Origin: Candidatus Buchananbacteria bacterium
GTDB lineage: Bacteria; Patescibacteriota; Patescibacteriia; 2-01-FULL-39-33; JBAYJR01
Assembly: GCA_041665005.1 (NCBI GenBank)
Contig: JBAYJR010000003.1
Coordinates: 17,102 to 81,101, forward strand
DNA: 64,000 nt
Direction: 5' to 3'
Positions 10,307-64,000 of this stretch are shown here, piece after piece. Position numbers and translations under genes: made by a program. The first letter of the stretch is position 1. Every line of letters starts with the position of its first letter. The notes beneath the pieces are model-generated. The model ran no database searches, was not told where the DNA came from, and saw only the letters and a program-made list of their open reading frames with translations.

Positions 10307-11767
10307 TTACTCATCGTCGTCTAATTCGTTTTTATCAAGTATCGTCAAATGTGGTTTAGCCCAATCCTCTCCATAAGCATCGCGTGTAATTTCTAAATGA
10401 GAAGGATCAGCCGCTTGTTCAATCGAATCCAGATATTGGAAGAACTCACTCTTGGTATTTGGGCTGAAAACTTTTACAGGATACCGGGACATATCAGTTT
10501 TAATCGGTTCTTCTTGTAAAAGCGCGGCCATACCGTTATCGATGAAAATCGCATCACAATACGGCAATAAGTTTGCTATGGCATTAACATCTGTGAACGT
10601 CCCTTTATTGGGCGGTTCCTTTTGTCCACTGGATGCTTTTCTGGCGATACCGGCGTAAAGCAACGAAGAAATACGCACTGACGGAATCTCCGTAACATAT
10701 TTGGATGAAAGATACTCGATGGCTTTTTTGATGGCATCTTCACCATCAATTCCTCGGCCGCGCAATGTTCGAATAAGGGCTTGAATAAGCTCGCTGGAAG
10801 GAGGTGGAAAAATGTCATTCAGGTCGATGTCCGGCTCTTTTCCCTGAAGATACTGATCGGCATACTTTTGTGGCAGCGCAGCCTGCTTTTTGAGGAACTT
10901 TAAATGAGCTAAAACAGTGCCTTTCCCAAAAGCATAGGCTTCTTCATTAACCCATTCCATGAAATTGCGTCCTCTCTCCTGTTGCCATCGCTGAAATACA
11001 CTTTTCATAGCTTCGTATTGGCTATTCCTTTCCTTGTGGACCGCTTCAAGCTGCCCATCATAGGGGCGCATGTTTACACTAACTCGCATTCTTCCAAGCC
11101 ATTCATGGAGACGACCGTGCACGATGTTGTCGACTTTAAGCTCGAGCGGCTTATCCGGCACATCATTCAAATAATTTTCAAAATGCTCCTGCACTTGAAA
11201 ACGTAGGATTGTATGATGATCGTAAAAAGTACACCCACTGGAAAGTCTTTCATAGACCTTCTTTAGCGACTTATATGGTGGGTCACCAGATAAGAGTGAT
11301 TCATCCGTGTGAAATGTAGAGTCAGGACAAACCACAAGATTCAACATCAGCAACCGATCGAGTTTTTTATATGCTTCAAGCCAAAATGGTTGAGCAATAA
11401 CCTTCTCATGACTACGAGCTGTTTTATCGAGTGCCTTCGTCATATTGCTGATAAGAAATTGGTCAAGATAGATGATTTTCTTTTTGATTTCGGGTAGAGA
11501 AAAACCTTGCTGATGCCAGCAAGTAGTACATTCACGCGAATATCCATTCCCGCCGGTTCCCACAAATACACCAAATGTCTCCTTCCCGCATTTTGGGCAC
11601 GTCTTATATGGACCAGAAATAAAATCTGCACGGGTGATGTGCTTTACGCGTTCTTCAAGTTGAGCCCTACGTTCATCTTTGGCGAGGCAACATTTCTTGT
11701 ATTTTTTTCCACTGCCACAGGAACAAGGGTCATTTCTTCCAACTTTAGTCATAGGATTCCGATTCAA
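10307..11767 (-). CDS. SEC-C motif plus zinc-ribbon protein with a large uncharacterised C-terminal domain
   Basis: N-terminal 'NDPCSCGSGKKYKKCC' SEC-C metal-binding motif, then 'CPKCGKE...CTTC' ribbon. 486 aa, divergent to the R-M operon. Confidence 0.6.
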   Translation of the reverse strand: MNRNPMTKVGRNDPCSCGSGKKYKKCCLAKDERRAQLEERVKHITRADFISGPYKTCPKCGKETFGVFVGTGGNGYSRECTTCWHQQGFSLPEIKKKIIYLDQFLISNMTKALDKTARSHEKVIAQPFWLEAYKKLDRLLMLNLVVCPDSTFHTDESLLSGDPPYKSLKKVYERLSSGCTFYDHHTILRFQVQEHFENYLNDVPDKPLELKVDNIVHGRLHEWLGRMRVSVNMRPYDGQLEAVHKERNSQYEAMKSVFQRWQQERGRNFMEWVNEEAYAFGKGTVLAHLKFLKKQAALPQKYADQYLQGKEPDIDLNDIFPPPSSELIQALIRTLRGRGIDGEDAIKKAIEYLSSKYVTEIPSVRISSLLYAGIARKASSGQKEPPNKGTFTDVNAIANLLPYCDAIFIDNGMAALLQEEPIKTDMSRYPVKVFSPNTKSEFFQYLDSIEQAADPSHLEITRDAYGEDWAKPHLTILDKNELDDDE

Positions 11768-28646: not shown

Positions 28647-30302
28647 ATGGCTAAACAAATTTTATACAGTGAAGCCGCTCGGGCGGCGATTAAACGCGGG
28701 GTAGATAAAATTGCCAACGCGGTTAAAGTCAGTTTGGGCCCTAAAGGGCGCAATGTAATTTTGGACAAAGGCTTTGGTTCACCGGTGATTACTAATGATG
28801 GCGTGACCATTGCCAAAGAAATTGAATTGGAAGATAAGTTTGAAAATATTGGTGCTTCGTTAATCCAAGAAGTGGCTAATAAAACTAATGATGTAGCAGG
28901 CGATGGCACTACCACGGCGACAGTTTTGGCGCAAGCGATTATTGAAGAAGGTTTTAAGAACGTGGCGGCCGGTAATGACCCGATGGATATTCGTCGAGGA
29001 ATTGAAAAAGCGGTGATTAGCGCGGTGAAGGCCTTAAAATCAATTAGTAAGCCAGTTAATGGTAAAAAGGAAGTGGCCCAAGTTGCCACCATCTCTTCGT
29101 TGGATGCGCAAGTGGGAGAGTTAATTGCGGAAATAATGGACGAAGTTGGTAAAGATGGCGTGGTCACAGTAGAAGAATCACAAACCATGGGTTTAGAAAA
29201 AGAAGTGGTTAAAGGCATGCGATTTGATAAAGGTTATGTTTCGGCTTATATGGTTACCAACACCGAGCGGATGGAAGCAGAATATAATAATGCTGCAATT
29301 TTGATCACCGAAAAAAAGATTAGTGCGATTCGCGAAATTTTACCCTTGTTAGAGAAATTAGCACAAAGCGGTACTAAAGAATTAGTTATTATTGCCGATG
29401 AAGTTGATGGCGAAGCCCTGGCCACTTTAGTGGTTAATAAATTGCGGGGCACTTTTAATGTGTTAGCGGTTAAAGCGCCAGGTTTTGGTGATCGTCGCAA
29501 AGAAATGTTGCAAGATATTGCCGTCTTAACTGGAGGCACAGTAATTTCTGAAGAACTGGGTCATAAATTAGAAAACACCACCCCAGAACAATTAGGTCAT
29601 GCCCGAAAAGTAGTGGCCAGTAAAGATTACACGACGATTGTTGAAGGCAAGGGTGAAGAAAAATTAATTAAAGATCGAGTAGCCCAAATTAAAAATGAAT
29701 ATGACAAGGCTACCTCGGATTATGATAAAGAAAAACTGCAAGAACGGCTAGCCAAATTGTCCGGCGGAGTCGGTGTCATTAAAGTGGGCGCGGCAACGGA
29801 AACTGAAATGAAAGAAAAGAAATTTAAAATTGAAGATGCTCTGCATGCCACTAAAGCCGCGGTGGAGGAAGGAATTGTGCCTGGTGGTGGTGCCGCTTTG
29901 GTTAAAGTAGCTTATGCTTTGGATGAATTAGTAGGCAAAGTGACCGAAGAAGAAAAAGTTGGCGTGGCGATTATTAAACGCTCCTTAGAAGCACCATTGC
30001 GACAAATTGCCGCTAATGCCGGAATTAAAGATATTGCTTTGATTGTTAATGAAATTAAAGATATTAAAGATGCGCATTCGGGTTATGATTTTGCTAAGAT
30101 GGAAAAAGCGGACATGTTAGAACGTGGCATCGTTGATCCGTTAAAAGTTACTCGTACCGCTTTAGAAAATGCCGCTTCGATTGCCGCTACTTTATTAATG
30201 ACCGAGGCAGTGGTAACGGATATTCCAGAAAAGAAAGAAAATGCTGCCGGCGGTATGCCGGGTATGGGTGGTATGGGTGGTGGTATGGGGATGGATTACT
30301 AG
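28647..30302 (+). CDS. groEL: Chaperonin GroEL
   Basis: '[11 protein letters not shown]', 'GPKGRNV', '[10 protein letters not shown]' and a C-terminal GGM repeat tail. Confidence 0.97.
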
Positions 30303-30375
<73 letters not shown>

Positions 30376-41093: not shown

Positions 41094-41936
41094 ATGAAAA
41101 ATTTTAATCGAGGTGGTGGTTTTGGTGATCGTAAGAGTAGCGGTGGTGGTTTTGGCCGTCGAGATTCGGGTGGTCGCGGTTTTGGTCGCGGTGGTAGTGA
41201 TACTGGCCGGCCGACAATGCATCAGGCCGTTTGTACTGAATGTGGTCAGGCTTGTGAAGTGCCATTTAAACCAACTGGTAGCAAACCAGTCTATTGTAAT
41301 AACTGTTTTAAGGGTAAAGAAGCGGCTGGTCCTCAGCGCGCGGGTGGCGGTTTTGGCCGTCGAGATTCTGGTAGTCGCGGGTTTAACCGTGGTGGTAGCG
41401 ATGGCGGCCGGATGGCGATGCACGAAGCAGTTTGTAGCGAATGCGGTCAGACTTGTGAAGTACCATTTAAGCCAACTGGTGATAAGCCGGTTTATTGCAA
41501 TAATTGTTTTAAAGGTAAGGACGCCGGAAGCTCGTCACGCTTTGGTGGTCGGGATTTTGGCAAGGATAGTTTTCAAGATAAAAAAATGTTTAAAGCCACT
41601 TGCGATAATTGCGGCAAAGCTTGCGAAGTGCCTTTTCGGCCTTCTGCCGGTAAACCAGTTTATTGCAGTGATTGTTTTGGCAAAGTTGATAATGCCGGTG
41701 GCAAAAATCCTTCTGCCGATCAATTTAAAGTTTTAAATGACAAATTAGATAAGATTTTGCGCACCTTGGGAGCCAGTTACCCTACGGCAGTGGTGGCCAA
41801 AAAAGAACCAGTTAAAGAGGTGGTTAAAGAAATAGCCAAGGAACCAGTTAAAGAGGTAAAAAAGATTGAACCTAAAAAGTTGGCTAAAAAAGCGGATAAG
41901 AAGGTGGTCGCACCCAAGAAAGCCAAGAAAAAGTAG
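41094..41936 (+). CDS. Triple zinc-ribbon protein with an RGG/Gly-rich N-terminus and a Lys-rich C-terminal tail. Putative nucleic-acid-binding.
   Basis: Three repeats of 'C-x2-C-x-C-EVPF(K/R)P-x4-KPVYC-x2-CF'. N-terminal 'GGGFGDR..GGGFGRRDSGGRGFGRGG'. C-terminal 'KKADKKVVAPKKAKKK'. Confidence 0.7.
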   Translation: MKNFNRGGGFGDRKSSGGGFGRRDSGGRGFGRGGSDTGRPTMHQAVCTECGQACEVPFKPTGSKPVYCNNCFKGKEAAGPQRAGGGFGRRDSGSRGFNRGGSDGGRMAMHEAVCSECGQTCEVPFKPTGDKPVYCNNCFKGKDAGSSSRFGGRDFGKDSFQDKKMFKATCDNCGKACEVPFRPSAGKPVYCSDCFGKVDNAGGKNPSADQFKVLNDKLDKILRTLGASYPTAVVAKKEPVKEVVKEIAKEPVKEVKKIEPKKLAKKADKKVVAPKKAKKK

Positions 41937-49155: not shown

Positions 49156-50043
49156 ATGTCTCGTTTAATTGGTGTTTTATTAACCTTAGGTGGTTTGTTA
49201 TTATTTAGTCAAAGTGCTTTGGCTTATTATTCTTTGGGTCCGCCGACTGGTTTTGTGACTGATAAAATTGGTTGGCTGAGTGTGTCGGAAAAAAATAAAT
49301 TAGAACAAGATTTAACTAACTACGAAAAACAAACCAGCAACGAAATTGTGGTGGTGACTGTTGATAATTTACAAGGCGATACTATAGAAAATTTTGCAGT
49401 CAAGTTGTTTGCCGAATGGCAAATTGGTAAAAAAGATAAAGATAATGGTATTTTATTGTTGATAGCTAAACAAGAACGACAAATGCGGATTGAAGTTGGT
49501 TATGGCTTAGAGGGGGATTTAACCGATGCTCAGAGCTTTCAGATTATTGATAAAATAGTTAAGCCATTATTTCAGCAAGAAAAATATGGTGAAGGAGTGA
49601 TAGCGGGAGTTAATTCAATTAAACAGGCTTTAAGTGGCAATTTAGAGGTGCCGGCCACTACTACCAATAGTAATACTCAAACTAAGTTTGATTTTGGGGA
49701 ATTTTTCTTTTTGTTAGTGTTTGTTTTACCGGGTTGGTTGCTCAGTATTTTAGCGAGAAGCAAGTCTTGGTGGTTGGGTGGAGTAATCGGTGCGGTAATC
49801 GGTGTAGTGATTTGGTTTTTTTCTACTTGGTTGGTTGGTCTGGGGACTATTTTATTGTTAGGTGGTTTGGGTTTATGGTTAGATTATGCCGTGTCTAAAA
49901 ATTACCATGAGCGTAAAGCTAAGGGTTTAAATCCGGCCTGGTGGGCCGGTGGAGGCGGTTTTGGTGGTCACGGCGGCGGCGGCGGTTTTGGTGGTTTTGG
50001 CGGAGGTTCTTCTGGCGGTGGTGGTGCGAGTGGTGGTTGGTAA
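49156..50043 (+). CDS. TPM-domain (YgcG-like) protein with a Gly-rich C-terminus
   Basis: TPM phosphatase-like domain after the signal peptide, TM, 'GGGGFGGHGGGGGFGG' tail. Typical lemA partner. Confidence 0.8.
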   Translation: MSRLIGVLLTLGGLLLFSQSALAYYSLGPPTGFVTDKIGWLSVSEKNKLEQDLTNYEKQTSNEIVVVTVDNLQGDTIENFAVKLFAEWQIGKKDKDNGILLLIAKQERQMRIEVGYGLEGDLTDAQSFQIIDKIVKPLFQQEKYGEGVIAGVNSIKQALSGNLEVPATTTNSNTQTKFDFGEFFFLLVFVLPGWLLSILARSKSWWLGGVIGAVIGVVIWFFSTWLVGLGTILLLGGLGLWLDYAVSKNYHERKAKGLNPAWWAGGGGFGGHGGGGGFGGFGGGSSGGGGASGGW

Positions 50044-56309: not shown

Positions 56310-56489
56310 ATGTTAAAGAAAAGCAAAGGAAAAAAACAAGGCAAGCCAGCGGAACGCACATTAGAGCGGAGAGTAAAAAGATTTTTAAAGACGCCGGAAA
56401 TGGACGATCCGGCTACGGCGCAAAGGAGAAAAGGCGGTTTGTTTCCCCGACTTACGGATGAGGAACAAAGGCTTTTTAGAAAAATTTAA
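56310..56489 (+). CDS. Hypothetical small basic protein (59 aa, below the ORF-track cutoff)
   Basis: ATG preceded by AAAGGAGG. Palindromic terminator CCGACTAATAAATATTGGTCGG downstream. Confidence 0.3.
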   Translation: MLKKSKGKKQGKPAERTLERRVKRFLKTPEMDDPATAQRRKGGLFPRLTDEEQRLFRKI

Positions 56490-56771
56490 AGAGGTTATCA
56501 AAACCGACTAATAAATATTGGTCGGTTTTTTTATTTCGCTTGACCTTGCTATGTCCATCAGTAGATTGGTTCAGGATTTGCCCCTTTGTCACCCAGACCC
56601 TGGGTGCTTCTGACAGTGTTAAATAATAATTAAAATACCCAACAAAATTTAAAATTAGTCATTGGATTGAGCATAATCAACCAAGGTTTTGATTGTTTGT
56701 AAAAAAAGAGGTTTTTTGTTAAGATAGACACAGCTTAGCTGTTAAAAATCAGTTAAGTTTCAAATAATTTT

Positions 56772-57824
56772 ATGCCCCAACTTTGCCCCGAACTCACTAC
56801 TAAACTAGCCTCCCTCAAACAACTTAAACAACAGTTTGATTTGGAATTATCTAGTCTACCGCAAACAGGCAAGACAGAGGATTTAACTTTGATTAGAGAA
56901 GCTAAAAATAAAGTAGAACAAACCCTTCAAGAGCTTCAAAACAAACTCTGGCTTAACACCCTCGAACTAACCCGAGAAAACCTTAAAGCCCAATATGAAT
57001 TTCAGAAAGATGTTCTTATTAAGTCCGGCCTCCTAAAAACCCTCTCCACTGGCGAATTAGGCATTGAAGCAATTGATAAACAAGAATACCCTCTACCCAC
57101 TCTAGAACAGATTGAAAAAATAATGCTAGAGAAACGTAAACTCTTAGAAACCAAAATCCCACAAGGCTTTGTTAAGTTAATTATTGTTCCCTTTGGCTTA
57201 CCGATAGGTTCTCTAATGGAGGCTTATGATAATGCCTTGATGGAGTGTTATCAACAAGCTAAATTATTAGACGCCCAAAATCAACCCTTAAAACTTTATG
57301 GAGAACCCACTTTTGATTATGCTGGATACGTAAAAGCCGAAGCCACAGGGGATTTGGTATATTTCCCCAAAAAATACTCCTACGCTAATCACCAAGGTAA
57401 AACTAAAAAACAACTCCTAGCCACCCAAGCCTGGCAAGTCTTGCTACTTGAAGACTTGCCTTGTCTTCCAGATGAAGGTAAGGGTAAAACCATAGCTGGC
57501 CGTGAGCAACCAGGGGTTTACCAAAAACCCAGTGAGTATCTTAAACAACTCCAAACTGACCCTCAGTATAAAGGTGAACAAGGTTTAACTCTGGAATCCT
57601 GGCTAGTTTACGGCTTAAGCCACTTAGACCAAACTAATCAAGTGATTGACGAGTATCAAAATTCAGGTAAATTTTGTCTTTTGGTGAGTAGTTATTTTAA
57701 ACAACCTGGCAATGTGTCGGGTGCTGATTTTTACCACAACCTTGCGCGGTTTTATTCGGTTCGGAGTGATCCGGATGATCCCTTTTCTTATGGTGTCGCC
57801 CGTTTTGCGGTGAGTATTTTATAA
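56772..57824 (+). CDS. Member A of a paralogous family: conserved ~60-aa N-terminal domain 'M..C..L..KL..LK.LKQ.FD.E' and a variable C-terminal region
   Basis: N-terminus aligns to ORFs 57836 and 63646. About 200 bp upstream is near-identical to the region upstream of 63646. Confidence 0.55.
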   Translation: MPQLCPELTTKLASLKQLKQQFDLELSSLPQTGKTEDLTLIREAKNKVEQTLQELQNKLWLNTLELTRENLKAQYEFQKDVLIKSGLLKTLSTGELGIEAIDKQEYPLPTLEQIEKIMLEKRKLLETKIPQGFVKLIIVPFGLPIGSLMEAYDNALMECYQQAKLLDAQNQPLKLYGEPTFDYAGYVKAEATGDLVYFPKKYSYANHQGKTKKQLLATQAWQVLLLEDLPCLPDEGKGKTIAGREQPGVYQKPSEYLKQLQTDPQYKGEQGLTLESWLVYGLSHLDQTNQVIDEYQNSGKFCLLVSSYFKQPGNVSGADFYHNLARFYSVRSDPDDPFSYGVARFAVSIL

Positions 57825-57835
57825 ATTTTAATTTT

Positions 57836-58594
57836 ATGTCTAAATATTGTTCCAAGCTTTCTGCTAAATTAGAAACTCTTAAAGCGCTTAAACAAGAGTT
57901 TGATCAGGAAATAGTTAAAGCACAAAGTCTAAGCCCCAATAAACCAGAGGATTTAGTTTTGGTTAGGGACATTAAAGCTAAACTAAATCAAGAGCTTAAA
58001 CAGTCTCAAGAGGTGATTGAAGTTTTTTATAAAATAGTTGATTGGCAAGATTTTTATCAAGAAGTTTTTGAACTTAAATATGATTTTTTTGATTTAATCA
58101 TTCCCAAAAAAGAGGAAGGTTTTGATCGGTTAATAATTATGGCCCCGGGTTTAACTAATCAACAACTTTGGGATAAAACTTCGGAAATTTGTAAAAGACT
58201 GGCGGGAACTCTTTTGATAAATTTTAATTTGTTTACTTCTGAGCGGACGACAAAAACGGCTTATGCTTTTTGGGTGCGCGATGATCAAGAGGCTTGTGCA
58301 GATGAATCAGCGGAATTTTTATCCGTTAAACAAGTTAAAGAGCGAGAACCAGTGGCCGAGACACTAGAGGAGCGTTTGTTACACGATTTGAAATATCTTA
58401 AGGAAACAGGTCGTCGTTTAGATTATCAAAGCCAAACTTTATGTAGTGGTTCAGTTGATAAATTTGGTCGGATGCCCTGTATTGATTGTAATAATTATAC
58501 TGAGACTCTGGTTAATTTGCTTGGTCTTGATACCGACTTATCTAAGATTGGCACGGATTATAAAAGATTACGTGCCCGTAAGGTAATTTTGTAA
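57836..58594 (+). CDS. Member B of the same family (tandem to A). Shares the N-terminal domain and a 'GF.RLII..PGL' core.
   Basis: Alignment by eye to A and C. Confidence 0.55.
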   Translation: MSKYCSKLSAKLETLKALKQEFDQEIVKAQSLSPNKPEDLVLVRDIKAKLNQELKQSQEVIEVFYKIVDWQDFYQEVFELKYDFFDLIIPKKEEGFDRLIIMAPGLTNQQLWDKTSEICKRLAGTLLINFNLFTSERTTKTAYAFWVRDDQEACADESAEFLSVKQVKEREPVAETLEERLLHDLKYLKETGRRLDYQSQTLCSGSVDKFGRMPCIDCNNYTETLVNLLGLDTDLSKIGTDYKRLRARKVIL

Positions 58595-58737
58595 ATTTTT
58601 TATTTTTTTTAATCCTTGATGCTCAATTGTTATTCAGTCCGCCCCGCGTAGCGGAGACTCGGGGTGCTTCTGCTGGAATTTTTAAAAAAACAAAAACCGA
58701 CTAATATTTATTAGTCGGTTTTTATAATTGATAATTT

Positions 58738-61002
58738 TTAAACTGCTTCTTTGGTATAACCGCAATCTTTTTTGCTACAGACCAGGGAACCATTTTTGCC
58801 GTAGACGATTAAGCTTTGGCAATTGGGGCATTTTTCGCCGGTTGGTTTGGACCAGAGGGCAAATTTGCAATCCGGATATTTATTGCAAGCATAAAAAACT
58901 CGGCCTCGTCCGCGCTTGGAAACAATTTCGCCCACGCCACACTGCGGGCAAGCGACTCCGGTGCCGTTATTTTTTTCAATATATTTACAATCGGGATATT
59001 TGGAGCAACCAACAAACGGACCATAACGACCCACCCGTTGCTGTAAAGGGGCGCCGCAATCCGGACATTTTTTATCTAAAATTAAAGGTTCCGGAATTTC
59101 TTGGCCGTTCTTATCAATTTTTTTGGTATTTTTGCAATCCGGAAAATTAGAGCAGGCCAAAAATTTGCCATAGCGTCCCCGTTTAATAATCATTGGTGAA
59201 TTACATTTTTCGCAAACTTCATCGGTTTTTTCTTCCGGCATAATGTCGGATTTTTTTACTTCTTCCATTTTTTCGTTAAGTAATTCTTTGAAAGGATGAT
59301 AAAAATTACTAATCACCGGCACCCATTCGGTTTTACCTTCGGCGATAGCATCCAAATCATCTTCTAGTTTGGCGGTAAATTGGTAATCTACAATTTGCGG
59401 AAAATGTTTGATTAATAAATCAATGACGATAAAAGCAATTTCGGTAGGCTTGAGCCGTTTTTCTTCGCGTTCCACATAACCACGATCAATGATGGTAGAA
59501 ATAGTTGGCGCGTAAGTGGAAGGCCGACCAATGCCATATTCTTCCAGGGCTTTAACCAAGGAAGCGTCGGTGTAGCGGGCGGGTGGTTGGGTAAAATGTT
59601 GTTCAGATTTTATCTCTTGGCTTACAATAGTTTCTTTAACTTGCAAAGCGGGCAAGAGTTCTTCTTTGGTGGCGACGGGGTAGACTTTTAGCCAGCCATC
59701 AAATTTAACCACTTGACCATTGGCGCGGAAAATAAATTTTTGGTCTTGCGAAATTAAATCGGCGGCGGCGTTTTCTAATTTGGCTCCGGCCATTTGGCAA
59801 GCCACGGCCCGTTGCCAGATTAATTGGTAAAGTTTAAATTGGTTATCGTTTAAAAAAGTTTCAATTTGTTGAGGAGCCAGTTTAACATCGGTAGGGCGAA
59901 TGGCTTCATGAGCTTCTTGGGCTGATTTTTGGGTTTTAGAAAAATGGCGAGGTTTGGGAGTGGTATAATTAGCGCCAAAGTTGTCAATAATATATTGATG
60001 AGCTTCGGTTAAAAATTTTTCGGCCAGATTTACTGAATCCGTGCGCATATAAGTAATCAAACCTACCGAACCTTGTGGTCCTAAGTCCACACCTTCATAG
60101 AGTTGTTGTGCAATCATCATGGTTTGTTTGGCAGAAAATCCTAGGCGACGGTTAGCTTCTTGTTGTAAAGTAGAAGTGGTAAACGGAGCATTGGGTAATT
60201 TTAGGGTGCTCTTACTAGTTAAATCGGCCACGGTAAAAGGTTGTTGACCGATTTGGTTAACTAATTCTTGGGCTTGCGCTTCGGTGGTGATAGAAAATTT
60301 TTCTAAAACTTTAGCCTCAACTTGTCGTAAGTTAGCTTTAAAAATTTGTTGAAGATTGTTTTGCGGAGCAAATTGTCCGGCGATGGTCCAGTATTCTTCA
60401 ATTTTAAAATCTTTAATTTCCCGTTCGCGTTCTACAATCAAACGAACGGTGACGGATTGGACGCGACCGGCCGATAAACCTTTAGTAACTTTTTTCCACA
60501 AAAATGGCGAAAGTTCATAACCCACCAAGCGATCTAAAACGCGACGAGCTTGTTGGGCGTCTACCATATGTAAATCCAGCGCTTGAGGATTTTTTAAAGC
60601 GTGCAAAATTGCCTCTTCGGTAATTTCATGAAAAGTAATACGTTTAATTTTAGCTTCAGGAGTTTTAAAAATTTGGGCCAGATGCCAAGAAATTGCTTCA
60701 CCTTCGCGGTCTTGATCAGTTGCAAAGTAAATGTTGTCTGCTTTAGTGGCTAATTTTTTTAAAGTAGTGACTACTTTTTTAGCTTTAGTCGGAATTACAT
60801 ATTGCGGAGTAAAATCGTGCTCAATATCAATACCCATTTTGCTTTTGGGCAAATCACGAATATGGCCAAACGAAGACTCCACTTTATAATCTTTAGTTAA
60901 AAAGCGAGAAATGGTTTTGGCTTTAGTGGGGGATTCTACAATTACTAAATTCATAGATGAGAAAATAATTTTAAAGTTATCCTTTAGTATTATCGCGCGC
61001 AA
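58738..61002 (-). CDS. topA: DNA topoisomerase I with four C-terminal zinc ribbons
   Basis: Toprim 'LVIVESPTKAKTI', catalytic-Tyr region, four C4 ribbons ('CEKCNSPM...CSNFPDC', 'CPDCGAPL...CSKYPDC', 'CPQCGVG...CNKYPDC', 'CPNCQSL...CSKKDCGY'). Confidence 0.95.
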   Translation of the reverse strand: MRAIILKDNFKIIFSSMNLVIVESPTKAKTISRFLTKDYKVESSFGHIRDLPKSKMGIDIEHDFTPQYVIPTKAKKVVTTLKKLATKADNIYFATDQDREGEAISWHLAQIFKTPEAKIKRITFHEITEEAILHALKNPQALDLHMVDAQQARRVLDRLVGYELSPFLWKKVTKGLSAGRVQSVTVRLIVEREREIKDFKIEEYWTIAGQFAPQNNLQQIFKANLRQVEAKVLEKFSITTEAQAQELVNQIGQQPFTVADLTSKSTLKLPNAPFTTSTLQQEANRRLGFSAKQTMMIAQQLYEGVDLGPQGSVGLITYMRTDSVNLAEKFLTEAHQYIIDNFGANYTTPKPRHFSKTQKSAQEAHEAIRPTDVKLAPQQIETFLNDNQFKLYQLIWQRAVACQMAGAKLENAAADLISQDQKFIFRANGQVVKFDGWLKVYPVATKEELLPALQVKETIVSQEIKSEQHFTQPPARYTDASLVKALEEYGIGRPSTYAPTISTIIDRGYVEREEKRLKPTEIAFIVIDLLIKHFPQIVDYQFTAKLEDDLDAIAEGKTEWVPVISNFYHPFKELLNEKMEEVKKSDIMPEEKTDEVCEKCNSPMIIKRGRYGKFLACSNFPDCKNTKKIDKNGQEIPEPLILDKKCPDCGAPLQQRVGRYGPFVGCSKYPDCKYIEKNNGTGVACPQCGVGEIVSKRGRGRVFYACNKYPDCKFALWSKPTGEKCPNCQSLIVYGKNGSLVCSKKDCGYTKEAV

Positions 61003-62090
61003 ACGTAATTTTGTCCACCGAGATTTTTTATTTTGCCTTTGATTTCCATAACGGCCAAGGTAGCGGCCACGGTGCTAATGTTTAACTTAGTCAACTTAGC
61101 CAAACTATCAATATGAATTGGTTCGCGGTTCAAATGTTTAAGTAGACTTTCTTCAGCCGGGCTTTCGGGGACAATGGCGTGAGCAGTAATATAACTGGAA
61201 ACGGTTTTTAAGTCAAGGGCGCCCAAGATATCTTGGGCGGTAGTAACCACTATGGCTCCTTGTTTAATTAGATTGTTGGTGCCGGCCGAATTGGGGTGAT
61301 AAATGTTGCCCGGCACGGCAAAAACCTCACGATTTTGTTCTAGGGCATACTTGGCAGTAATTAAGGCGCCAGATTCGGCCGGCGCTTCAATAATTAAAGT
61401 ACCCAAAGACAAACCGGAGATAATACGATTGCGCAAAGGAAAATTATGCACCAAAGGTGGCATACTCAAAGGAAATTCAGAAACCATTAAACTGCCAGCG
61501 GCAATAATTTTTTCGGCCAGTGAGCGATTTTGCGTGGGATAAAGACTAGACCAAGCTAAACCCGAACCCAGCACGGCAAGGGTGCGACCTTGATTTTGTA
61601 AAGTTGCTTGATGCGCCAAAGTATCAATTCCCAAGGCCAGGCCGGAAACAATTGTTAAGCCGGCTTGAACCAAGGGGATAATTAAGGTGTCAATTAATTG
61701 TTGACCATAAGGTGAAACCTTGCGAGTGCCGACGACGCCCAAAGCAAAACGATCACGATTATTATCTAAGGTGCCACGATAGTAAAGGATTGGCGGGGGG
61801 CTGTAAATTTCTTTGAGTAATGGCGGGTAGGCTTCTTCTAAAATTGTTACGGCCTGTACTTTTTCGGTGTGTAATTTTGTTAATTCTGCTTCCGGGTTAA
61901 TTTGCGGTCGACGGCTAATAATTTCTTGGGCTAAGTCAGGTTCTAAGCCACAAGTTATTAATTCGGATAAACTAGCCGCCCAGGCGGTTTGTAAATTTGG
62001 AAAGTAAGAATAAAGTTTTTTAAATCTAACCGGCCCGAGTTTAGTAAATTGATTAAAAGCTAGCCAAAAAGGTAAATCAGTTGAAGACAT
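60990..62090 (-). CDS. dprA: DNA processing protein DprA (Smf)
   Basis: 'GLALGIDTLAHQATL...GALITAKYALEQNREVFAVPGNI'. Overlaps the topA start by 13 nt. Confidence 0.9.
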   Translation of the reverse strand: MSSTDLPFWLAFNQFTKLGPVRFKKLYSYFPNLQTAWAASLSELITCGLEPDLAQEIISRRPQINPEAELTKLHTEKVQAVTILEEAYPPLLKEIYSPPPILYYRGTLDNNRDRFALGVVGTRKVSPYGQQLIDTLIIPLVQAGLTIVSGLALGIDTLAHQATLQNQGRTLAVLGSGLAWSSLYPTQNRSLAEKIIAAGSLMVSEFPLSMPPLVHNFPLRNRIISGLSLGTLIIEAPAESGALITAKYALEQNREVFAVPGNIYHPNSAGTNNLIKQGAIVVTTAQDILGALDLKTVSSYITAHAIVPESPAEESLLKHLNREPIHIDSLAKLTKLNISTVAATLAVMEIKGKIKNLGGQNYVCAR

Positions 62091-62240
62091 AAGATAAGTT
62101 AAAATAATATTTAGTTATTATAAAACTTTTTAGACCATCTTGACAAAGATTTAAAAGGGGGATATAATAAAATATCAAAAAAAATTATTGAAAGATCATT
62201 GAAAGAGAGATAAAATTTACAGAAAAGGGAGGCGCTCATA

Positions 62241-62525
62241 ATGGGCTGTAGTAAGAACAGGACCAAAAATTTACAGTTCAAAAAAGTTAAATTGCGTTAT
62301 CGGGTTGAGTATGATTTAAACCCAAATTGTTTTGTGGAATGTTCGGCCTACAGTGAAGCCCAGGCTTGTGGGTATGTTTCTTCTCATAAAAGAGAGCTTT
62401 GTAAAAATTGGGGGATTAATCTTAGTTTTATTAATTCCTCTACCTTAAAAGCTTTTGTTTTGGGAAGGGCTTATCAAAAAGTAATTGTGGTCGCTGAACA
62501 GTTGGAATTTAATTTCCTCCGCTAA
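62241..62525 (+). CDS. Hypothetical Cys-containing small protein
   Basis: ORF track. RBS GGGAGG upstream. Terminator CCGCTAAATT...AATTTAGCGG downstream. Confidence 0.4.
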   Translation: MGCSKNRTKNLQFKKVKLRYRVEYDLNPNCFVECSAYSEAQACGYVSSHKRELCKNWGINLSFINSSTLKAFVLGRAYQKVIVVAEQLEFNFLR

Positions 62526-62574
62526 ATTAATAAAATTTAGCGGTTTTTTTACCAGAAATTATTTTTGTCAGGTA

Positions 62575-62603
62575 TTGACAAAATTATTAACCTATGCTAT
62601 ACT
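62575..62603 (+). promoter_or_regulatory. Promoter: TTGACA, 17 bp spacer, TATACT (with a second TATAAT 2 nt downstream)
   Basis: Hexamers read directly. No protein-coding ORF of at least 60 aa follows before the terminator. Confidence 0.5.
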
Positions 62604-62611
62604 ATATAATC

Positions 62612-62800
62612 ACTAGGAGTTAATTGAAATTGTCCAATAAACAGCTATCTATCAGTGGCGAGAGCCTGGTTCCCTCCTACCACGCTGATAGCCTAAAGCT
62701 GGGACTTTAGGATGGTTCCTAAACGTTCCACACTGGTAGGTGGCTGTTTGTTGAACACTTTAGTTATAAAAATCACCCCGGTTAGCGGAGTGATTTTTTT
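62612..62800 (+). ncRNA. Candidate structured small RNA (~190 nt) between a consensus promoter and an intrinsic terminator. Identity unknown.
   Basis: Nested inverted repeats (CTATCAGTGG...CCACGCTGATAG; CCTAAAG-ctggga-CTTTAGG). Terminator ATCAC-CCCGGTTAGCGGA-GTGAT then T7. Only a 29-codon ORF inside. Confidence 0.35.
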
Positions 62801-62815
62801 GTTGAATAAAAAGGT

Positions 62816-63385
62816 TTAGCGTTGATTGTATAAGTTGCTGGCCTGGGCCAATTCTCCGGCTAAAATTAAGTTGATGGCGTTTAATAGGTTAGGCCAGAGT
62901 TTAGTTAGTTGTTTTTTTTCGTCAGCGGTTAGTTTGCTTAAAACAATGTTTTCCGCTTTATTTTTTTGTTCAGGATTTTTAATGCCTAGCCGTAAACGAA
63001 TAAAATTTTGCGTCCCCAGTTCTTTAATAATAGAAGCCACGCCGTTATGTCCGGCGGCCGAGGCATTAAGGCTAATTTTAAAGCGGCCTTGAGTTAGATC
63101 AAAATCGTCATGGATAATAATTAGGTCAGCTGGCTTGATTTTATAAAAATTAGTAATTTTTTGGACCGCTTGGCCGGATAAATTCATATAGGTTTGCGGT
63201 TTGGCTAAAATTATTTTTTCGCCGGTCACTTTACTTTCGGCTAATTCGGCTTGGAACTTAGTATTTTTTCGCCAAGTGCTGGCCGCTAATTCTTTAGCTA
63301 ATTTTTCCACCGCCCAAAAACCCAAATTGTGTTTGGTGTGGTTATAAGTTTTGCCAGGGTTACCTAGGCCGATGATTAAATGCAT
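62816..63385 (-). CDS. pth: Peptidyl-tRNA hydrolase
   Basis: 'MHLIIGLGNPGKTYNHTKHNLGF' Pth signature. Confidence 0.9.
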   Translation of the reverse strand: MHLIIGLGNPGKTYNHTKHNLGFWAVEKLAKELAASTWRKNTKFQAELAESKVTGEKIILAKPQTYMNLSGQAVQKITNFYKIKPADLIIIHDDFDLTQGRFKISLNASAAGHNGVASIIKELGTQNFIRLRLGIKNPEQKNKAENIVLSKLTADEKKQLTKLWPNLLNAINLILAGELAQASNLYNQR

Positions 63386-63393
63386 AGGGTTGG

Positions 63394-63444
63394 GTAGTTG
63401 AAAGTATAAAGGGGAAAGTATAAAGTATAAAGTAGAAAGTGGAG
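63394..63444. repeat. GAAAGT-family short tandem repeats ('gtagttgaaagtataaaggggaaagtataaagtataaagtagaaagtgg')
   Basis: Same motif family as the 30303-30375 and 486-520 repeats. Confidence 0.5.
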
Positions 63445-63645
63445 GATGATTATATTTTAGCTTAATCGCTGGGGCTTCGCAAGGTTCAGGATCTAATCCC
63501 TTGTTATCCCGAGTTTGCTTACCTGCTGATGTGCTTAATTGCTTACTCGCTTATTCTAGCCTAATTTGTTTGTAAAAAGTATGGGTTTTTGTTAAGATAG
63601 ACACAGTTTAGCTTTTAAACACCAGTTAAATTTTGAAATATTTAT

Positions 63646-64000
63646 ATGCCCCAACTTTGCCCCGAACTTACAACCAAACTAGAATCTCTTAAACAACTTA
63701 AACAAGGGTTTGATTTGGAGATAATCAAAGCGCAAAGTCTAAGTCATAATAAATCAGAGGATTTAGTTTCAGTTAGAGAAGCTAAAATAAGATTAGAGCA
63801 AAAGCTAGAGCAAATCTCAAAAATATTATGGCAAGAGTTTTATGTCAATTCTCCCCGAGGACTAACCGCTGTAGAAAAGAAAATAAATTATCATGTAATT
63901 GAAACTCTCGAAGGACATGCTAATGCTGTGTTCACTCTCCAGGTCCTACCTGATGGTCGCATTGTTTCGGGTAGTGGTGATAAGACTATTAAAATCTGGC
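63646..64000 (+). CDS. Member C of the paralogous family (3'-partial at the window edge): conserved N-terminal domain followed by WD40 repeats
   Basis: N-terminus 'MPQLCPELTTKLESLKQLKQGFDLE' is near-identical to A. 'GHANAVFTLQVLPDGRIVSGSGDKTIKIW' is a WD40 blade. The upstream ~200 bp are homologous to the region upstream of A. Confidence 0.6.
   Translation, partial: MPQLCPELTTKLESLKQLKQGFDLEIIKAQSLSHNKSEDLVSVREAKIRLEQKLEQISKILWQEFYVNSPRGLTAVEKKINYHVIETLEGHANAVFTLQVLPDGRIVSGSGDKTIKIW

Follow-up and report, generated by a model that had tools for sequence, protein, structure and literature searches.

Three genes near the end of a 64,000-nucleotide stretch of DNA (the window), which is part of a 91.7-kb contig of a 'Candidatus Buchananbacteria' metagenome-assembled genome (MAG), were followed up from a sequence-only reading that had pointed out their common beginnings and divergent ends. 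We consider it likely that these genes, here termed A, B and C, belong to a repertoire of binding proteins, in part of the type diversified by diversity-generating retroelements (DGRs) and in part built of repeats, whose members are joined by a shared N-terminal adaptor that is probably homotypic. All three open reading frames (ORFs) were found in the window as the sequence-only reading had stated; they and their modules are as follows.

56772..57824, + strand: gene A (WCW02_01770), 350 aa, with N-terminal hairpin module, A-type body and a C-terminal module of the variable-region type
56772..56951, + strand: N-terminal module of A (residues 1-60), predicted two-helix hairpin with the invariant Cys5
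57714..57821, + strand: last 36 codons of A, equivalent of a DGR-type variable region; footprint in the paralogs, and the homologous stretch is the variable region at two loci of other Patescibacteria (L015, L017)
57836..58594, + strand: gene B (WCW02_01775), 252 aa, with N-terminal module (57836-58027), B-type body and a C-terminal module (~58352-58591) homologous to that of A
63646..64000, + strand: gene C, truncated at the window end (full length 388 aa), with N-terminal module (63646-63831) followed by seven WD40 blades

The N-terminal module of ~60 residues which had been claimed for these ORFs is indeed shared, with identities over the first ~60 aa of 60% for A and C, 56% for B and C and 41% for A and B. 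Invariant in all three are M1, C5, L8, K11, L12, L15, K16, L18-Q20, F22, D23, E25, K34, E36-L38, R42 and K45. According to the AlphaFold2 models of A (mean predicted local distance difference test score, pLDDT, 91.7) and B (pLDDT 84.9), the module consists of two helices (residues ~4-27 and 35-59) which form an antiparallel hairpin, whose structural neighbors were generic helical hairpins only. The structure prediction proposed in the sequence-only reading thus returned a helical module, while for the secretion signal that it had also envisaged the outcome was negative: neither a hydrophobic N-terminal segment nor a signal peptide nor a lipobox was found in the N-termini of the family, and a Sec or lipoprotein signal was rejected for want of any hydrophobic N-terminal stretch.

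In order to trace the module further, its profile was searched exhaustively against 1.84 billion representatives, a word-indexed search having given just 5 short proteins. At E<=1e-3 the profile retrieved 157 representatives, nearly all of them beginning at residue 1, of which a handful were long coiled-coil false positives. The module heads ~150 protein clusters (50% identity) with an invariant cysteine near residue 5 (Met-x3-Cys), and the named carriers are Patescibacteria. Clustering of the remainders of these proteins unveiled more than 20 unrelated body types, comprising the A-type, the B-type, WD40, WG_beta_rep and LRR_6 (Pfam), helical repeats and several orphan types; furthermore, many of the proteins are stand-alone forms of 50-90 aa. 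The hairpin is a Patescibacteria-wide N-terminal module joined to many different ligand-binding bodies. It has not been described before, and it is also carried by WD40, LRR and WG-repeat proteins.

Behind the hairpin, A and B had been credited with a related core. This proved correct for their last ~80 residues, which form a homologous C-terminal module (profile-profile comparison by HHalign, 96.8%, E=2.7e-10), and incorrect for the middle parts, which are unrelated. Homologues of the B-type are found ~90 times in Patescibacteria, with many different N-termini. The A and B bodies and the C-terminal module gave no significant match in Pfam, NCBIfam, PADLOC or PHROGs; the models of A and B gave no match beyond generic helical hairpins in the Protein Data Bank (PDB) or BFVD by Foldseek, and no match was obtained by hidden Markov model (HMM) search against PDB sequences. 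The lack of any database match for the bodies fits the published remark that DGR targets from bacteria in the candidate phyla radiation (CPR) lack recognizable domains (PMC8144416). The assignment of C to the WD40 proteins was confirmed, since PF00400 was matched at E=5e-8 on the partial ORF and seven repeats were matched at E=5e-66 on the full 388-aa protein. Its blades form a 132-nt tandem array of 6.7 copies with 80% DNA identity (L002 16067-16956), which points to a propeller that is young or homogenized, unlike the diverged propellers of gene E (see below) and of the WD40 gene at locus L014.

The genes of the window are only part of a larger family. Past the window end, three more genes come after C, namely D with a B-type body, E with a divergent beta-propeller and F with an A-type body; each of them starts with the N-terminal module. 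By homology search, 20 A-type paralogs with WCW02 locus tags (47-70% identity to A) and 3 B-type paralogs with such tags were identified, together with a fourth B-type gene at L014, 3 members of the WD40 type and 1 hairpin-only member. With at least 28 genes in a MAG whose locus tags imply a total of ~1000, the family is a lineage-specific expansion; for a ~1-Mb minimal genome, about 28 such genes are an unusually large copy number. The sequence-only reading would have given up its proposal had only the copies of the window existed, which is not the case. The count is a lower bound from an incomplete census, few loci of the MAG having been recovered. Members of different type stand together in mixed operons (A-B, C-D-E-F and A-WD-A-B-A, the last being the A-WD40-A-B-A cluster of L014); in addition, an A-A pair lies behind the MTAP gene (L005), a single B-type gene was found at L006, an A-type gene lies behind ileS (L021), and an 81-aa hairpin-only gene was found at L020. 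Many members are located ~10 nt behind housekeeping genes, inside housekeeping operons and without the promoter that A and C share. Independent assemblies of the organism (L014, L020, L021) stop within or beside family members, which indicates that the paralogs fragment assemblies and that the copy number is probably underestimated. An origin from a prophage, or any compositional anomaly, was considered and rejected, for the GC content matches that of the neighbors and no phage families occurred among the matches.

DGRs are unusually common in CPR bacteria. Two loci of other Patescibacteria (L015 and L017) contain hairpin-bearing homologues which adjoin a DGR with bAvd and an RVT_1 reverse transcriptase (RT), in the order target gene, template repeat (TR), bAvd, RT. 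At L015 a TR of 121 nt (11369-11489) matches the 3'-terminal variable regions (VRs) of two A-type genes that carry the hairpin, and at L017 a TR of 120 nt (2743-2862) matches the VR at the 3' end of an A-type gene of 354 aa. Since all mismatches between TR and VR at both loci fall on TR adenines, the A-type tail is a bona fide DGR variable region, i.e. the last ~40 codons of the shared ~80-residue module are a VR in other Patescibacteria. The DGR-type VR at the extreme C-terminus of A-type (and, elsewhere, B-type) bodies is the main source of variation, and it had been missed by the sequence-only reading. The adenine fraction of the L015 and L017 VRs is 0.07-0.15, and adenine is likewise depleted in the B-type homologue P0080 and in a third body type of L017; no DGR was found in the context of a B-type homologue (L019). 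This third body type (327 aa, 'EKAKEIMG...RAKELGQFL'), which bears the hairpin, is encoded twice at L017 (7344-8327 and 9693-10676); its 3' end has an adenine fraction of 0.07-0.15 versus 0.44 and is unmatched by the local TR, so that either another TR may act on it or it may have been a target in the past.

For the Buchananbacteria genome itself, five A-type paralogs (A, F, the two L005 genes and the L021 gene) were compared codon by codon, where the tail denotes the ~29 alignable codons preceding the conserved RF(A/G)VSI end. In the tails, 22, 23 and 15 of the 29 codons vary at positions 1, 2 and 3, respectively, as compared to 91, 57 and 127 of 231 codons in the rest of the gene; this reversal of the codon-position pattern is significant (Fisher p=8e-4). 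Adenine occupies 2 of 145 third codon positions in the tails versus 38% in the rest of the gene, and the GC content is 0.45-0.58 versus 0.38-0.41. The tails follow a common skeleton, TTCGACCGT..GCGCGG..CCG..CCCGTTTTGCGGT, the end of which is also written CCCGTTTTGCGGTKAGTAT. The A-type paralogs of this genome hence carry the mutational footprint of a DGR.

Several findings weigh against the favored reading. The window and the other ~70 kb of MAG sequence read gave no RT, Avd or TR: the TR search was negative for the window, L001, L002, L005, L006 and L014, tblastn with the L015 and L017 RT and Avd gave no match in the window, L002, L005, L006 and L014, and the gene tables of L020 and L021 list no RT or Avd. 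The A-type paralogs may therefore be live remote targets or fossils. For B the footprint is weak, as its tail is hardly depleted in adenine (0.28 vs 0.33) and looks decayed, D and the other B-types of this genome being intermediate. The tail of A, one of the more diverged copies, also looks partly decayed, less so than that of B, and departs from the common skeleton at positions which are not adenine in the inferred template. Furthermore, the members of the WD40 type are devoid of a VR, and the VR module has no detectable similarity to the C-type lectin scaffolds of DGR targets in the Foldseek and HMM searches given above. Finally, the adaptor role of the hairpin is a proposal, and the AAA_5 ATPases and 707-710-aa proteins which adjoin family members elsewhere (see below) do not carry the hairpin.

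The lack of an RT, Avd and TR in ~90 kb of this MAG and the decayed tails would be expected if the repertoire were a fossil, i.e. if the genes were paralogs of DGR targets on which the retroelement has been lost or become inactive, with their diversity frozen and kept by duplication, recombination and ordinary selection. Such a fossil differs from the favored reading solely in whether the DGR still acts, and cyanobacterial paralogs with remnant TR-VR homology only are documented (PMC7517822). We regard this as possible, though less likely than not. In the F, L005 and L021 genes, which are 60-70% identical, the tail skeleton and its third positions are better conserved than synonymous sites elsewhere, and these tails are GC-rich (0.56-0.58); this is the pattern expected from repeated resetting by a common template and argues against a fossil. 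Moreover, the sequence read covers a minor part of the genome, which limits the weight of the missing RT, Avd and TR.

The DNA shared by A and C extends upstream of the coding region, where the following elements were located.

56500..56529, + strand: terminator hairpin upstream of the A-B unit; near-identical copy at 58690-58725 (86-90%)
56568..56579, + strand: GGTTCAGGATTT motif, at the far end of the upstream sequence common to A and C; C copy at 63483-63494 (2 exact copies vs 0.49 expected)
56693..56770, + strand: block of putative promoter and leader of the A-B operon, 82% identical to 63566-63643
63566..63643, + strand: block of putative promoter and leader of the C-D-E-F operon; -35 at 63570-63575, extended -10 at 63590-63598
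58690..58725, no single strand: bidirectional terminator hairpin at the end of the A-B operon and of topA (opposite strand), copy of the hairpin at 56500-56529

The promoters of A and C had been called near-identical. A shared block exists, with 82% identity over 78 nt (56693-56770 versus 63566-63643) and 86% over the 91 nt which span the start codons, while farther upstream the identity is ~60% with indels, also in the ~60 nt flanking GGTTCAGGATTT, so that the wording was somewhat overstated; a significant RNA fold was not detected around GGTTCAGGATTT. The 18-mer TTGTTAAGATAGACACAG occurs at exactly 2 sites of the window, both within the A and C upstream blocks (0.02 expected), and GGTTCAGGATYT has 2 exact occurrences (0.49 expected). 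Read by eye, the putative promoter of A consists of a -35 element TTGTAA (56697-56702) and an extended -10 element TGtTAAGAT (56717-56725); with 8/12 matches, this site was not reported by the promoter consensus scan. The ~45-nt leader after the -10 element can form a 10-bp hairpin (z=-2.7 in A, weaker in C), and a Rfam scan of 54-64 kb gave no RNA family in the shared leader. B starts 11 nt past the stop codon of A without the shared upstream DNA and lacks a promoter of its own.

Some further repeats were noted around these genes. The exact 11-mer GGGTGCTTCTG lies at 56602-56612 and at 58662-58672, flanking the A-B pair, which is also bracketed by the terminator hairpins AAAACCGACTAATA..TATTrGTCGGTTTT (56495-56536 and 58686-58727, 86-90% identical); hairpins and 11-mer may be the borders of an inserted unit, or simply a recurrent terminator family. 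The region of the so-called X motif around GGTTCAGGAT and GGGTGCTTCTG gave no significant RNA fold, and its interpretation as a tRNA fragment or att site was dropped as unsupported. Short arrays with a 7-nt period (RAAAGTN) are present in intergenic DNA at 63393-63441 (between pth and the C promoter), 30302-30366 and 484-520.

In A and C, unrelated bodies stand behind a conserved promoter and 5' coding block, which is also what programmed antigenic or phase variation would produce, in which cassettes are exchanged at a few expression sites with conserved promoter and N-domain as in the Mycoplasma vlp/vsp or pilE/pilS systems. Homopolymer tracts in the promoter spacer (A7/T6 in A, A5/T5 in C) and the mosaic character of the N-domain variants are compatible with such a mechanism, which the sequence-only reading had brought up as cassette shuffling. 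We nevertheless judge it very improbable. The spacing of the -35 and -10 elements is 17 nt in A as well as in C, all copies seen are complete ORFs, each with a start codon of its own, many of them without the shared promoter, and no silent, promoterless or 5'-truncated cassettes and no orphan C-terminal ones were found among the copies seen; in addition, the paralogs are 47-70% identical and thus too diverged for frequent gene conversion.

What does stand of the earlier proposal is a constant 5' module of promoter, leader and N-domain with interchangeable C-terminal bodies. The N-domains have a median identity of 54% within this genome and of 29-37% between genomes, and at L017 three proteins of two body types have hairpins which are 88-95% identical. 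A and D share N-domains of 75% identity on bodies of 17%, while the bodies of A and F are 66% identical and their N-domains 53%; furthermore, each of the three loop variants of the module is found on more than one body type. Since the N-domain variants cross-cut the body types, the modules have been swapped repeatedly by recombination over evolutionary time, and the end of the A/C similarity at the end of the module can be read as one such exchange junction.

Taken together with the DGR footprint, the favored repertoire could have arisen as follows. The RT would copy the template repeat and randomize its adenines, and the resulting cDNA would overwrite the 3' end of the target gene; a DGR located elsewhere in the genome would in this way rewrite, or would once have rewritten, the A-type tails. 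The genes would spread by duplication, and recombination inside the conserved 5' module would generate new combinations of promoter, hairpin and body, as a consequence of which promoter, leader and N-domain are common to A and C, which then diverge abruptly, and the N-variants cross-cut the bodies. The hairpin would serve as a homotypic oligomerization or adaptor domain which, within the cell, brings co-encoded binding subunits together or links them to one shared partner. This probable adaptor role is suggested by the similarity of the hairpins within a genome, by the mixed operons and by the analogy with effector-associated adaptor domains.

In three other genomes an AAA_5 ATPase stands beside a family member. 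These ATPases of 650-780 aa (MoxR/dynein-type) accompany hairpin genes and their DGR. Furthermore, at L015 and L017 a conserved HExxH protein of 707-710 aa without Pfam match follows the RT; the stretches with these neighbors are L015 12841-18124, L017 4155-6287 and 10743-12701, and L007 5176-7521. L017 also contains two Bro-N genes and an AAA_14/DUF4143 ATPase. Neither the AAA_5 ATPase nor the 707-710-aa protein is present at the examined loci of this MAG.

Helical hairpins resemble substrates of the WXG100 type. Together with the strictly N-terminal position of the module and its invariant cysteine near residue 5 across ~150 clusters, this resemblance would suit a signal for non-classical export or surface targeting, or a domain that binds a chaperone, which delivers binders or effectors to the surface or to the host cell of a presumably episymbiotic bacterium in an LXG/WXG-like manner. 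The bodies are binding domains of the sort expected in host attachment, and DGR targets of other bacteria are usually surface-exposed (PMC8144416). In view of the missing hydrophobic segment and lipobox, the cytoplasmic type of the neighboring AAA_5 ATPases in other genomes, the lack of a linked secretion-system gene at any locus examined and the lack of any LXG, WXG or similar domain by Pfam, we consider export unlikely. The sequence-only reading had compared the genes with effector or polymorphic-protein families. Even less credible than export, and in our estimate extremely unlikely, are polymorphic toxins or effectors whose C-terminal toxin domains vary and whose immunity genes lie next to them. 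Such a family is suggested by the architecture only, i.e. by the constant N-terminus, the variable C-termini and the tandem genes. Searches of Pfam, NCBIfam, PADLOC and PHROGs gave no toxin, immunity or secretion-related domain, the tandem partners are full family members with the same N-domain, other downstream genes are housekeeping genes, and the bodies are binding repeats or modules of the DGR type.

With this locus, the orphan DGR targets of CPR bacteria gain an anatomy, made up of the common N-terminal hairpin, a body of one of a few kinds and a small VR module. A minimal genome can hold such genes in mixed sets, apparently often co-transcribed, and a large block of 'hypothetical proteins' becomes a testable system. 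A bolder version, which we hold to be rather doubtful, sees in the hairpin a new homotypic adaptor similar to effector-associated domains (EADs) and the Death fold, which would wire dozens of sensors with DGR tails, WD40, LRR or WG repeats into common intracellular complexes, with a VR scaffold not recognizable as a C-type lectin; a CPR bacterium with a genome of ~1 Mb would then spend ~3% of its genes on an anticipatory, combinatorial receptor repertoire for defense or host sensing. If the hairpin does act as an adaptor, the principle of EAD-linked, DGR-diversified sensors known from multicellular bacteria would also hold for symbionts with reduced genomes.

Apart from the family, the window contains a strong promoter (TTGACA-17-TATACT with an upstream TG) at 62575-62800 on the + strand, followed by an RNA of ~170 nt and a terminator. 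Its fold is a long rod (-79 kcal/mol, z=-8.5), and Rfam gave nothing at E<=1; this may be a small RNA that is not annotated, possibly a 6S- or SRP-like rod. A direct repeat of 182 nt (80% identical) is located at 41142-41524, and more GGT-rich repeats lie near 49950-50025, which suggests Gly/Arg-rich repetitive ORFs. Two small ORFs with promoter- and terminator-like signals of their own, at 56310-56489 (59 aa, very basic) and 62241-62525 (94 aa), have no Pfam match.

In comparison with known systems, the family differs from polymorphic toxin systems (LXG/WXG, Rhs, CDI) by having no toxin, immunity or trafficking domain in its window members, and from the Mycoplasma vlp/vsp families by the missing lipoprotein signal and the 17-nt promoter spacer common to A and C. 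Collectin-type lectins consist of an N-terminal cysteine segment, a coiled coil and a C-terminal lectin domain. The likeness to them is one of architecture only, namely an N-terminal cysteine and a coiled-coil oligomerization element before a C-terminal ligand-binding domain, which would give avidity by multimerization; there is no homology, and the proteins described here are of the cytoplasmic type.

Closer is the relation to EADs and Death-like adaptors (PMC7159879). Shared terminal adaptor domains are known on DGR targets and neighboring proteins (PMC7159879, PMC10907252), EAD8 among them on DGR targets (PMC10907252). As with EADs, a small, non-enzymatic terminal domain, here alpha-helical, occurs on several proteins of one genome and often in adjacent genes, its copies are closest to lineage-specific paralogs, and there is a tie to DGR-diversified sensors and MoxR-type AAA ATPases; in the present family the same terminal domain heads adjacent genes (A-B, C-D-E-F, A-WD-A-B-A) and is more similar within than between genomes. 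In contrast to EADs, however, A, B, C and 93 hairpin proteins gave no Pfam match to an EAD or Death-like domain, no hairpin copy was found on a core NTPase, VMAP, iSTAND, STAND or GAP1 component in the loci examined, no member has an effector domain or an enzymatic effector partner recognizable by Pfam, and the host is a reduced-genome CPR bacterium and not multicellular. By analogy, the hairpin may be said to work like an EAD rather than to be one.

With the CPR DGR proteins (RT clade 2; Paul et al. 2017), as far as these are described in PMC8144416 and PMC10907252, the family shares a C-terminal VR of ~40 codons which is rewritten adenine-specifically from a TR, the order target, TR, bAvd and RT (L015, L017) and targets without signal peptide or recognizable domain (PMC8144416). 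For such targets new variants of the lectin fold and intragenic recombination have been proposed, their action at the surface or inside the cell being left unresolved (PMC8144416). The present genes differ in that neither an RT nor a TR lies near those of the window, which may be remote targets or fossils, that the VR scaffold is unmatched to the C-type lectin fold, and that at least 20 A-type paralogs are found in one ~1-Mb genome. The commonest reported CPR architecture is a C-type lectin (CLec) fused to an AAA ATPase (PMC10907252), whereas here the ATPase, where present, is a separate neighboring gene and the target carries an N-terminal hairpin.

The remaining precedent is provided by cyanobacteria, in which dispersed paralogs of DGR targets and remote targets are known (PMC7517822). 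There, too, in-genome duplicates are dispersed away from the DGR, some of them with remnant TR-VR homology, and a modular N-terminal part is grafted on a constant C-terminal module which bears the VR. In the cyanobacterial proteins the C-terminal CLec is shared and the domain at the N-terminus differs (kinase, orthocaspase and others), whereas here a second, N-terminal module is shared which is also found on VR-less WD40, LRR and WG-repeat proteins. The family belongs with the DGR variable-protein families and their dispersed paralogs (PMC7517822).

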